64,000 nucleotides of DNA from Alphaproteobacteria bacterium (GTDB taxonomy: Bacteria > Pseudomonadota > Alphaproteobacteria > Micavibrionales > Micavibrionaceae), in assembly GCA_030432025.1 (NCBI GenBank), contig JAUIIA010000002.1, forward strand, positions 207,276 through 271,275. Direction: 5' to 3'. Both the position numbers and the translations under genes were made by a program. Positions 10,259 through 61,244 of this stretch are shown here, in pieces (position 1 is the first letter of the stretch; each line of letters starts with the position of its first letter). The notes beneath the pieces were generated by a model that made no database searches, was not told where the DNA came from, and saw nothing but the letters and a program-made list of their open reading frames with translations.

Positions 10259-10412
10259 TGCGATTGCCGATTGCATCGCGAAAGCCCTTTCTTTATAAAG
10301 CGAAGACTATGTTGAAAAGATTGCGTTTTTGACTAGGCACGACGAGCAAAATGTATAAAACATACATGAGCGATGAAATCACGCTGACACTAACGCAAGA
10401 TAGAAGCAAAAT

Positions 10413-42659: not shown

Positions 42660-43337
42660 TTACTTTTTCTTCTTTGCAGTTGTCTTTTTCTTAGCCGCTG
42701 GCTTCTTCGCGACCTTCTTAACAGTTTTAGCAGCAGAGGCAGCACGCTTAACGGCTGTCACTTTTCTATTACTGTTTGCAGCTTTTTTCTTAACTGTGGC
42801 TTTGCCCGCAACTTTCTTGGTTACTGACTTTTTAGCCGCAGCCTTCTTAGGAGCCGCCTTTTTCTTTGCCGCCGGCTTTTTAGCTACAGTCTTTTTCTTG
42901 GCTGTAGTTTTCTTCGCCGCTGTCTTCTTAGGGGCTGCCTTTTTCTTTGCCGCCGGCTTTTTAGCTACAGTCTTTTTCTTGGCTGTAGTTTTCTTCGCCG
43001 CTGTCTTCTTAGGGGCTGCCTTTTTCTTTGCCGCCGGCTTTTTGGCTACAGTCTTTTTCTTGGCTGTAGTTTTCTTAGCAGCTGTCTTTTTAGCTGTTGT
43101 CTTCTTGTTGGTATTCGCCGCTGACTTCTTTACGACTTTCTTTTTAACTGCAGGCTTCTTCGCCGTAGTCTTTTTAGCTGTAGTTTTCTTAGCAGCAGCT
43201 TTTGTCGTAGACGTTTTAGGCTTCACTGCTTTTTTAGCAGGCGCTTTCTTTGACGCAGGTTTTTTAGTCGTTGCTTTTTTTGCTGCAGGTTTTTTAGCCG
43301 CAGGTTTTTTGGCAACTTTCTTGGTAGTCGTAGCCAT
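42660..43337 (-). CDS. Lys/Ala/Thr/Pro-rich histone H1-like (AlgP/Hc-like) basic protein
   Basis: 225 aa made almost entirely of [12 protein letters not shown] units, with internal 27-aa repeats; a terminator lies downstream. Confidence 0.8.
42846..43075. repeat. 81-bp tandem repeat, ~2.8 copies, in frame (27 aa)
   Basis: Unit starts at 42846, 42927 and 43008. Copies differ at only 1-5 positions (for example TTAGCTAC vs TTGGCTAC). Confidence 0.85.
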
Positions 43338-55127: not shown

Positions 55128-55505
55128 TTAGTCCAGGGTATAAGCGGTAACGCCGGTAATATCTTCGATATCAATGATATGAACAGCCTTCACGTCTGTT
55201 TCTCTTGGTCCTGTCCGTGTTTTATCAAGCATCACAACATAAGAACCGCTGACCTGTATAATCGACCCAGTGAAAGCGTGGGAATACGTATAAACAGTGA
55301 CATTTGATTTGAACAAACGTCCTTTGCTCTCATACAGCTCTTCTAATATAGAACTGTAATTACGCGTATCGTTGAATTCATAAACTTTAAAACCACCGCG
55401 GGCTACATAAGCTTCAAGCTCTATAGCGCTCTCCTGCTGCGCATGCGCAGGAAAAATCAAAAAAACTGAAAGAAAAAGAGACAGGAATAATGCGTCTCTA
55501 AACAT
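55128..55505 (-). CDS. Hypothetical secreted protein (125 aa) 4 nt downstream of atpC
   Basis: Signal peptide (FLSLFLSVFLIFPAHA); no family recognised. Confidence 0.5.
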   Translation of the reverse strand: MFRDALFLSLFLSVFLIFPAHAQQESAIELEAYVARGGFKVYEFNDTRNYSSILEELYESKGRLFKSNVTVYTYSHAFTGSIIQVSGSYVVMLDKTRTGPRETDVKAVHIIDIEDITGVTAYTLD

Positions 55506-55509
55506 GGAG

Positions 55510-55914
55510 TTAGGCGGCCTTAGCGCTGATTTTGGCTTCGGTCATCACAATATGACGCTGAAGACGGGCTTTATCACTCGCTTCTTCGGCCAATTCAAGA
55601 TCATGGCGAAGTTCTTTAAGCTGCTTTTCCAATTTAGCAGGGTCCAAATCGGCAACATTAATCGCCTCTTCCGCGAGTACTGAACAATTTTCAGCCGTTA
55701 CATCCGCAAAACCGCCCGCAATAAAGATTTTCTGCGGCTCACCGTCTTTTTCTTTATACAGCTCGACGATGCCTGCCTTCAAGGACGCGACGAGTGAAGC
55801 ATGACCAGCCATAACGCCGAATTTGCCTTCCTCACCGGGAATGATGATCATATCGACAGGCTCGGACACCAATCGGGCTTCGGGGGATACAAGTTCAAAA
55901 TTAATCTGTGTCAT
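55510..55914 (-). CDS. atpC: F0F1 ATP synthase subunit epsilon
   Basis: FELVSPE...IPGEEGKFGVMAGHA is the typical epsilon N-terminal beta-sandwich. ATG 55914 overlaps the upstream stop (TAATG); an alternative ATG is at 55929. Confidence 0.9.
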   Translation of the reverse strand: MTQINFELVSPEARLVSEPVDMIIIPGEEGKFGVMAGHASLVASLKAGIVELYKEKDGEPQKIFIAGGFADVTAENCSVLAEEAINVADLDPAKLEKQLKELRHDLELAEEASDKARLQRHIVMTEAKISAKAA

Positions 55915-56135
55915 TATTCTGGTTTCCACTTAATTTGGAATTCAATCTCTTCTTCGTCTTCACCGCGTTCATGTTCAATAGTAAAACGCGCACGATCGGG
56001 TACATAAACACGCTCACCGTCGATCTGGATCTCGAAATTTTCGCCACTTTCGATGCAATCAGCCAAACGACGGATTTTTTCGACGAATTCTTTGTTCGTA
56101 TATTCTTTTTCTACATCACGTTGTACGACGGCCAT
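55914..56135 (-). CDS. Small acidic protein (73 aa) with an amphi-Trp-like motif, inside the atp operon
   Basis: FVEKIRRLADCIESGENFEIQIDGERVYVP...EEEIEFQIKW resembles the amphi-Trp domain pattern. The stop overlaps the atpC ATG by 1 nt. Confidence 0.55.
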   Translation of the reverse strand: MAVVQRDVEKEYTNKEFVEKIRRLADCIESGENFEIQIDGERVYVPDRARFTIEHERGEDEEEIEFQIKWKPE

Positions 56136-56146
56136 TGTGTTTCTCT

Positions 56147-56416
56147 CTAGCGGTTTAAGCGGACATATTCACGAACATCGTCAATCAGACGGGCCATATC
56201 ATCCAGACAATCAATATCGACTTCACAATATTCGCGGTCAATTTCATGCCCTTCATCTTCTTGCAGAACAAGAACGAGCTTTTTCATCCCGCCCTTTTCG
56301 TTGACGATGAAGCTCAAAGCACTGCGGTTAACTTCCGATAAAGGCGCAGAGTCAAACTCATGTACGGTCTTACCGTATTTGCCTTCCGAAAGATTTTGTA
56401 TCAGCGATTTGAGCAT
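56147..56416 (-). CDS. Small acidic hypothetical protein (89 aa) inside the atp operon
   Basis: ATG 56416 is preceded by AAGGA that overlaps the atpD stop (spacing ~9 nt). The ORF track starts at TTG 56422. No family recognised. Confidence 0.5.
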   Translation of the reverse strand: MLKSLIQNLSEGKYGKTVHEFDSAPLSEVNRSALSFIVNEKGGMKKLVLVLQEDEGHEIDREYCEVDIDCLDDMARLIDDVREYVRLNR

Positions 56417-56428
56417 CGTCAATTGTCC

Positions 56429-57931
<1,503 letters not shown>

Positions 57932-57951: not shown

Positions 57952-58137
57952 TTATTGTTCCAAAGTCGTCCCGAAGATCGCTTCGCTCGCCCTTGGATGG
58001 GTAAATTCAAATTCTGTATCACTCTCTCCGTTTAAATCGCCTTTTTCAGCGATATCTTCAGAAGTCGGTGGATTGTCATCAACAAATTCCTCAAACAACC
58101 TCAACTCGCCTGCTTTAGTCACGCGAGGCTTGGTCAT
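57952..58137 (-). CDS. Small acidic ORF (61 aa) filling the atpG-atpD spacer
   Basis: The ATG overlaps the atpG stop (TAATG). The ORF ends 32 nt before the atpD ATG, just before its AAGGAAG RBS. No family recognised. Confidence 0.45.
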   Translation of the reverse strand: MTKPRVTKAGELRLFEEFVDDNPPTSEDIAEKGDLNGESDTEFEFTHPRASEAIFGTTLEQ

Positions 58138-59045
58138 TACACCGCCTCCGCACCGGAGATAATTTCGATCAATTCCTTCGTAATGTGGGCCTGACGCGCA
58201 CGGTTGTACTCCAGCGTCAAACCATCAATCATTTCGCCCGCATTCCGTGTGGAGTTATCCATCGCAGTCATACGCGCGGCTTGCTCACCCGCAGCACTAT
58301 CCAGCAATGCACGGAAAATCTGTACACCGAGGTTACGCGGCAACAAGGCTTCCAGAATACGCTCTTCTTCCGGTTCGAAATCATACGGAGAAACCTGCTC
58401 GGCCTTCGCATCATCATCGTCCTCGGACGCCTCTTCACTGGCTTCAGGAAGTGCAAATGGAATCAATTGGTTAACAGTCGGCTTCTGCGTCAGAACAGAC
58501 ACGAATTCGTTGTAAATCAGGCTGCATACATCGAAGTTTCCGGCTTCAAACTCGTCCAGAATATAATCAGTAACCTTCGACGCATCCGCATATTCAACAC
58601 GGGAGGAGCCCATGAGACCGATAAAGCTTTGTGCAATCAAACCGGAATAGCCGCGTTTCAGGGAATCACGACCTTTACGACCGACACAAAGAACGGAAAC
58701 TTCTTTGCCTTCGGTAGTCAGTTCCTGAATTCTGGCAATCGCTTTTTTGACGAGGTTGGCGTTAAAACCACCACACAAACCACGGTCAGCAGTCACAACC
58801 ACCAACAAGTGGCGCTTATCTGAGCCCGTACCGGCCAAAAGCTTGGATGAACTTTCATTGATCACGACATTAGCCGCAACACGGGACAGCATCTCGCTCA
58901 TCGCTTGGGCGTAAGGCTGGCTGGCTTCCGCCTGCTCCTGCGCCTTACGCAGCTTTGATGCCGCAACCATCTTCATGGCCGACGTGATCTTTTTAGTCGA
59001 TTTGACCGACTTAATCCGGTCTCTATAGTCGCGTAGACTTGGCAT
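58137..59045 (-). CDS. atpG: F0F1 ATP synthase subunit gamma
   Basis: [37 protein letters not shown]-terminus and [15 protein letters not shown]-terminus. Confidence 0.95.
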
Positions 59046-59069: not shown

Positions 59070-60626
<1,557 letters not shown>

Positions 60627-60656: not shown

Positions 60657-61244
60657 TTATGATACTTCTTTTAAACTGATGTTTTCGTTGGCGCTTGAGC
60701 CCATTGAGACTTTCAAACGTTCCAACTTACGGCGTACGGAATCATCAATCATGTGTGATCCGACGGTAACGATAATACCGCCAAGAATGCTAGGCTCGAC
60801 ACGGGCGTTGATCGCCACATCCTTACCGATAGCCTTTGACAGTGCATCTTCCAGCGCTTTTTGCTGCTTGGCGCTCATATCCTGTGCGACTTGAACATCG
60901 ACAGTAATCGCACCGCGGCGCTTATCCATGGCTGTGTTTACAGCCTTGATAATACCCGGCAACAGCTCCAAACGGCCGTTCTGGGCGACAACACCGAGAA
61001 AACTTTGTGTGATTTCAGCAAATTTGGCTTTGCCAGCAATAGCCACAATAGCGTCCATCTGCGTCTTGGGATCATTAAGCGGGGATTCGATAAGGAATTT
61101 AAGATCTTCGGAACCGTCAATCATCGCGGACAATTCGCCGAGGTCCTTTTCAACGTCTTTAAGAACCTTTTTCTCTTCCGCCAATTCGATTAAAGCATTG
61201 GCATAACGACTAAATATTACTGATGATTGCCCCGAGGTCGACAC
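60657..61244 (-). CDS. atpH: F0F1 ATP synthase subunit delta (OSCP)
   Basis: RYANALIELAEE N-terminus and C-terminal GGIIVTVGSHMIDDSVRRKL; first gene of the atpHAGDC order. Confidence 0.9.
   Translation of the reverse strand: MSTSGQSSVIFSRYANALIELAEEKKVLKDVEKDLGELSAMIDGSEDLKFLIESPLNDPKTQMDAIVAIAGKAKFAEITQSFLGVVAQNGRLELLPGIIKAVNTAMDKRRGAITVDVQVAQDMSAKQQKALEDALSKAIGKDVAINARVEPSILGGIIVTVGSHMIDDSVRRKLERLKVSMGSSANENISLKEVS

Follow-up and report, generated by a model that had tools for sequence, protein, structure and literature searches.

Two conserved small genes between atpD and atpC in a Micavibrio-like F1 operon are probably passengers rather than ATP synthase parts

Why do two small open reading frames stand between the genes for the beta and epsilon subunits of an F1-ATPase, and do their products serve the ATP synthase? 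The locus lies in a window, by which we mean the whole 64,000-nt stretch of DNA that was analysed, and comprises a complete F1 operon in the order atpH-atpA-atpG-(orf61)-atpD-orf89-orf73-atpC, assigned by Pfam. Its features are as follows.

60657-61244, minus strand: atpH, first gene of the complete F1 operon
59070-60626, minus strand: atpA, between atpH and atpG
58137-59045, minus strand: atpG, between atpA and orf61
57952-58137, minus strand: orf61, a 61-codon ORF that fills the atpG-atpD spacer
56429-57919, minus strand: atpD (F1 beta subunit), 496 aa, Pfam ATP-synt_ab at E 6e-71, TAA stop at 56431-56429
56426-56430, minus strand: AAGGA, Shine-Dalgarno-like site for orf89, read from the sequence
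56147-56416, minus strand: orf89, 89 aa, ATG at 56416-56414 and TAG at 56149-56147
55914-56135, minus strand: orf73, 73 aa, amphi-Trp domain protein (PF20068 and TIGR04354)
55912-55916, minus strand: TAATG, overlap of the orf73 stop and the atpC start, read from the sequence
55510-55914, minus strand: atpC (F1 epsilon subunit), 134 aa from its ATG, Pfam ATP-synt_DE_N at E 7e-25

The reading that we favour is that orf73 and orf89 are probably genuine, expressed small cytoplasmic proteins whose genes travel as passengers in the atpD-atpC spacer and do not encode components of the ATP synthase. It takes coding status, family membership, distribution, context and spacer variability as established, and goes beyond them in three inferences: that the genes are co-transcribed, how they were captured and that they have no role at F1.

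A sequence-only reading of this DNA had described two small acidic ORFs of 89 and 73 aa filling ~500 bp between atpD and atpC, and this layout holds, with 514 nt on the minus strand from the atpD stop to the atpC start. The AAGGA ribosome-binding site that it placed across the atpD stop is found at 56430-56426, where it shares bases with the TAA of atpD and lies 9 nt ahead of the orf89 ATG. A purine-rich stretch of 11 nt separates the orf89 stop from the orf73 ATG. The proposed overlap of the orf73 stop with the atpC ATG (TAATG) is likewise present, at 55916-55912, with one base common to the TAA (55916-55914) and the ATG (55914-55912). The ORF list takes orf89 back to a TTG (91 aa) and atpC back to a GTG (139 aa); we chose the ATG for orf89 because all 13 of its relatives start with MLK or MLR, and the ATG for atpC because alignments to the atpC of relatives begin at MTQ. 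The atpD of the window is 83-97% identical to that of relatives. A scan of the cassette found no promoter- or terminator-like sites above shuffle expectation.

Judged by their conservation, orf89 and orf73 are real genes under strong purifying selection, in agreement with the earlier claim of coding status. The dN/dS of orf73 against relatives is ~0.06-0.13 with saturated dS, and that of orf89 is 0.03-0.06 at dS 0.8-2.8, both resembling the values of atpD and atpC. The opposing idea, that both frames are open by chance, or are remnants in decay, within a long non-coding spacer, draws on the neighbouring spacer, where orf61 has no homologue in 40 relatives, so that some spacer ORFs are not conserved genes. 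It can be practically dismissed for orf73 and orf89, which have low dN/dS (0.03-0.13, with saturated dS), homologues in the hundreds, HMM matches above curated cut-offs (orf73: PF20068, TIGR04354) and confident AF2 models; these conservation data already refute it for both. The acidic orf61 itself (57952-58137, minus strand), the start of which overlaps the atpG stop, has homologues in 0 of the 40 relatives, close ones included, and no Pfam, NCBIfam, PHROG or PADLOC match; because homologues and profile matches are absent, we do not regard it as a conserved gene, unlike orf73 and orf89.

The resemblance of the 73-aa product to the amphi-Trp domain, noticed earlier from the letters, proves to be a true HMM match. 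orf73 scores 32.3 bits against PF20068 (cut-off 27) and 49.6 bits against TIGR04354 (cut-off 31, residues 8-71), and by exceeding both curated cut-offs it can be assigned to the amphi-Trp family. It is the single amphi-Trp copy found in a scan of the whole genome. The protein is acidic (pI 4.6) and has no hydrophobic segment, and its AF2 model (pLDDT 86) shows one helix packed on a four-stranded sheet. Specifically, the C-terminal segment E63-I-E-F-Q-I-K-W70 (EIEFQIKW) alternates acidic and hydrophobic residues and ends in Trp, and AF2 places a strand at residues 62-69, covering this amphipathic segment. Among 20 diverse amphi-Trp relatives 26 residues are invariant; these include E63, E65, F66, Q67 and W70, and the charged ones are R6, D7, E9, K10, R22, R23, E54-H55-E56-R57, E63 and E65. 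Such invariant charges suggest that amphi-Trp proteins may bind a conserved partner or ion. orf73 thus shares with the family (PF20068, TIGR04354) its size, its C-terminal strand with the invariant Trp and its single-domain build. No structural relative emerged: the best Foldseek match of the amphi-Trp model in the PDB has an E value of only 2.4, and the family profile has no meaningful match among PDB sequences. An EcfG-type general-stress promoter motif was found upstream of 1 of 113 amphi-Trp genes, that is, essentially of none.

A search of 5.8 billion proteins recovered relatives of orf89 in 13 clusters at 56-93% identity, none of which (0/13) carries a Pfam domain, and orf89 represents an orphan family confined to Micavibrio-like bacteria. 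The protein is acidic (pI 4.7) and soluble, has no hydrophobic segment, and is modelled by AF2 (pLDDT 85.5) as a short helix, four strands and a long C-terminal helix. Foldseek against the PDB returned only a weak beta4-alpha resemblance to PC4/PUR-like folds (E 0.09-0.7), which we do not consider credible because orf89 is acidic, and the orf89 family profile has no meaningful match among PDB sequences. The arrangement is always atpD-orf89-amphiTrp-atpC, with orf89 known from no other position and lying 11-31 nt from the downstream amphi-Trp gene in two genera and in metagenomic contigs, two of which carry an orf89 of ~60% identity in the same order. This strict adjacency, orf89 never standing alone, and the purifying selection on both proteins speak for a self-contained pair of proteins (a binder with its modulator, say) that forms a module unrelated to ATP synthase and gains only expression from the operon. 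We hold this to be rather unlikely, since orf89 is missing beside most amphi-Trp genes inside and outside the order, and amphi-Trp must therefore work without it; moreover, two acidic proteins do not suggest an electrostatic pair, and neither profile similarity nor a known pairing was found. A paralogous relation of the two was rejected, with a profile-profile probability of 0.4%. A partnership of orf89 and amphi-Trp would in any case be compatible with the passenger reading and with an F1 role.

The distribution of the two genes was followed in a sample of 201 genomes of the order, in which amphi-Trp genes were placed by comparing their coordinates with those of atpC and were called atp-linked when on the same strand within ~650 nt upstream of atpC. 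atpC is found in 194 of the 201 genomes and amphi-Trp in 36, of which 28 have it just upstream of atpC, seven elsewhere (G004, G036, G052, G131, G141, G152, G208) and one at a place that could not be assigned. The atp-linked copies belong to several genera of the window's family and to one genus of a second family. orf89 occurs in 5 of 201 genomes, in two genera, each time directly between atpD and amphi-Trp. Of 21 genomes in the window's own genus, 9 carry amphi-Trp and 5 carry orf89. The comparison of atp operons across relatives that had been proposed earlier thus gives a patchy picture (atp-linked amphi-Trp in 28/201, orf89 in 5/201), and this patchy presence (36/201 and 5/201) favours passengers.

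A lineage-specific accessory or regulator would account for the same position differently: orf73, with or without orf89, would bind F1 and modulate ATP hydrolysis or assembly, possibly while these predators are in their non-growing attack phase, and expression would be matched through the place in the operon. Several observations fit this, namely that the beta-epsilon position is kept in 28 genomes of two families, that the coupling signals AAGGA and TAATG are present, that both ORFs are under strong purifying selection and that orf89 is absent from all other contexts. Micavibrio raises the expression of its ATP synthase genes during the feeding phase (PMC3189940), which makes a regulator of the idle enzyme conceivable. 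Nevertheless, we consider such a role improbable. Amphi-Trp is missing from 165 of 201 genomes, from the atpC position in 173 of 201 and from 12 of 21 genomes of the same genus; among the loci examined, none from another phylum links a nearly identical protein to atp genes; carriers and non-carriers alike keep the zeta inhibitor; orf73 and orf89 have no similarity to zeta or to other F1 regulators in Pfam; and the same spacers hold unrelated genes.

Beyond the order, this amphi-Trp subfamily comprises 1619 clusters at 90% identity, with at least 555 loci confirmed among species-representative genomes, and the protein keeps ~70% identity between Alpha- and Gammaproteobacteria, Bacteroidota, Planctomycetota, Verrucomicrobiota and others. 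Of 80 genome loci examined, 15 show the order atpD-amphiTrp-atpC, all labelled Micavibrio or Alphaproteobacteria; they include L060, in which amphi-Trp is flanked by an inserted gene and atpC. At the other 65, which include Shewanella, Halomonas, Bacteroidota and Planctomycetota and three loci labelled Micavibrio, Alphaproteobacteria or Rhodospirillales, amphi-Trp is mostly monocistronic with unrelated, lineage-specific neighbours, and none (0/65) has an atp gene within 4 kb. These 65 of 80 loci again favour passengers: a dedicated ATP synthase factor would co-occur with atp genes wherever its family is found, and amphi-Trp is atp-linked at 15 of 80 loci. The gene of this genome, with those of 27 other sampled genomes of the order, therefore differs from the stand-alone genes of the 65 other loci in lying inside an F1 operon. 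Three Pfam-annotated amphi-Trp contexts have nothing in common and differ between taxa. Domain fusions are uninformative because almost all of the 831 representatives at 50% identity are single-domain, and two long representatives that were checked have no recognisable second domain. The Micavibrio-like arrangement is the sole recurrent gene linkage of amphi-Trp that we found, and for this reason it is the sole available lead to a partner, if a weak one.

Two other origins were considered and rejected. A phage or defence protein was not indicated (best PHROG match at an E value of only 0.08, no PADLOC match and no phage record), and a plasmid search bearing on a mobile origin gave three distant matches only (41-46% identity), on large non-mobilisable replicons. 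Among the amphi-Trp relatives, the 130-aa protein P0149 has a Lys/Ala-rich, histone-H1-like N-terminal tail of ~58 residues; a separate Lys/Ala-rich protein is encoded in the window at 42660-43337. On the ENA contig ctg301483_2x_l (L098, 1054-1300), a frameshift splits an amphi-Trp gene so that residues 1-37 and 34-73 lie in different frames, and because the contig name indicates 2x coverage, a sequencing error and a pseudogene are equally likely.

The zeta subunit of F1 (PF07345, ATPaseInh_sub_z), with which the sequence-only reading drew an analogy, is likewise small, soluble and alphaproteobacterial, and orf73 and orf89 could act on F1 as it does. However, zeta is a helical bundle, unlike the predicted helix-and-sheet folds of orf73 and orf89, and neither matches PF07345 even at E values up to 1. 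As the sequence-only reading had supposed, the inhibitor is encoded away from the operon: this genome has the gene on a different contig (G000:C5:351352-351657), and 166 of the 201 genomes possess it, cassette carriers and non-carriers alike. A complementary distribution of amphi-Trp and zeta was thereby rejected, and because zeta is present among carriers and non-carriers, amphi-Trp does not replace it; that zeta is encoded regardless of the cassette favours passengers. AtpTheta of cyanobacteria and IF1 of mitochondria, short helical peptides encoded away from the operon, are small, as orf73 and orf89 are, and suggest the same idea of preventing wasteful ATP hydrolysis; no Pfam match and no PDB sequence or fold match ties the two ORFs to them. 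The products of atpI and atpZ/urf6 are non-subunit proteins whose genes are co-transcribed with ATP synthase genes, as is probably true of the two ORFs; they are membrane proteins encoded at the head of the Fo operon, whereas the two ORFs stand between the beta and epsilon genes and encode acidic, soluble proteins that lack hydrophobic segments.

The history of the cassette is only loosely constrained, because the amphi-Trp tree (100 sequences, 71 columns) is poorly resolved. A single group for all 27 atp-linked copies is not rejected (p-AU 0.54), and the non-atp copies of the order (G004, G036, UBA6147) fall in a separate clade with sequences labelled Acidovorax and Xanthobacteraceae. Taken together, a single origin of the atp-linked copies that is not rejected and a different clade for the order's other copies speak for passengers. 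One capture followed by many losses fits these data, and so does recombination within the conserved flanks, atpD and atpC, that spread the cassette among relatives. Under either history, most members of the order can do without the cassette. In addition, GC and GC3 of both ORFs lie below those of atpD (GC3 of orf73 is 0.365, against 0.455 for atpD), which is a further point for passengers.

The F1-operon spacers of the order are insertion-prone and permissive. Across 39 Micavibrio-like loci, 23 to 1018 nt separate atpG from atpD, and 36 to ~1300 nt lie between atpD and atpC. Amphi-Trp is by far the commonest tenant of the atpD-atpC spacer. Apart from amphi-Trp and orf89, the spacers harbour genes for small membrane proteins, for a protein resembling lipoproteins and for several orphan proteins, secreted or membrane-bound; the gamma-beta spacer of many genomes (L018, L019, L033, L114, L115 and others) holds a secreted PAP2-family (acid-phosphatase-like) protein of 270-310 aa, and PDDEXK_3 (GxxExxY-type) genes occupy either spacer (L060, L104). 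Many genomes, with or without amphi-Trp, have a palindromic hairpin of ~104 nt directly after the atpD stop (for example, L009, L012, L100, L102, L113, L114). Of the 32 pairs in this element, 16 show compensatory changes, and it matches no Rfam family; because a covariance model finds it scattered through the genomes of 24 of 41 relatives, with 1-25 copies in each, we regard it as a REP/MITE-like repeat. It is not in the window's own operon and has a weak match at window positions 10305-10408. Such variable, crowded spacers, with unrelated tenants and a dispersed repeat, favour passengers. In this order, a core and highly expressed operon can thus acquire, in its spacers, small genes that have nothing to do with it as well as a mobile palindromic repeat, a lesson for caution before operon membership is equated with function.

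The passenger reading suggests the following course of events. F1-operon spacers of Micavibrio-like bacteria would tolerate insertions, and an amphi-Trp gene, stand-alone and patchily distributed elsewhere, would have been captured in one, possibly a single time. Repeated losses, or passage among relatives by recombination via the atpD and atpC flanks, may have followed, and orf89 would have joined upstream of amphi-Trp in a sublineage now seen as two genera. The atp transcript probably carries both genes, given gaps of 9-11 nt and no terminator-like site between them; orf89 and orf73 would each use a ribosome-binding site of their own, and in this genome termination of orf73 may be coupled to translation of atpC through TAATG. 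What the passengers would gain is strong, growth-linked expression. Consistent with amphi-Trp needing high expression, the 20 most abundant proteins of Dissulfuribacter thermophilus include an amphi-Trp protein (PMC13490349); this is the one incidental mention of the family that we found in the literature. The sequence-only reading had left open whether the two ORFs encode accessory or inhibitory subunits or are hitch-hiking genes; the evidence sides with hitch-hiking (28/201, unrelated contexts, zeta kept, crowded spacers) and lends the subunit option little.

Several observations pull against the passenger reading. The arrangement persists across at least two families under strong purifying selection; amphi-Trp is the commonest tenant of the spacer and orf89 is known at no other position; the stop/start overlap links atpC translation to orf73; and the extreme conservation of surface charge across phyla fits a universally conserved partner, for which F1 is one candidate. 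A bolder proposal builds on such a partner: amphi-Trp would bind F1-ATPase or another universally conserved energy-coupling machine, and Micavibrio-like predators would have wired amphi-Trp and orf89 into the F1 operon for a control beyond zeta. We rate it as distinctly improbable; an F1 role, if true, would be the first function, or functional handle, for the whole amphi-Trp family.

On the other side of atpC, a 125-aa protein with an N-terminal signal-like segment and no Pfam match is encoded at 55128-55505 on the minus strand, beginning 7 nt past atpC. It is kept behind atpC in close relatives (33-82% identity; L002-L004, L012), and could be one more tenant that is co-transcribed with the operon.
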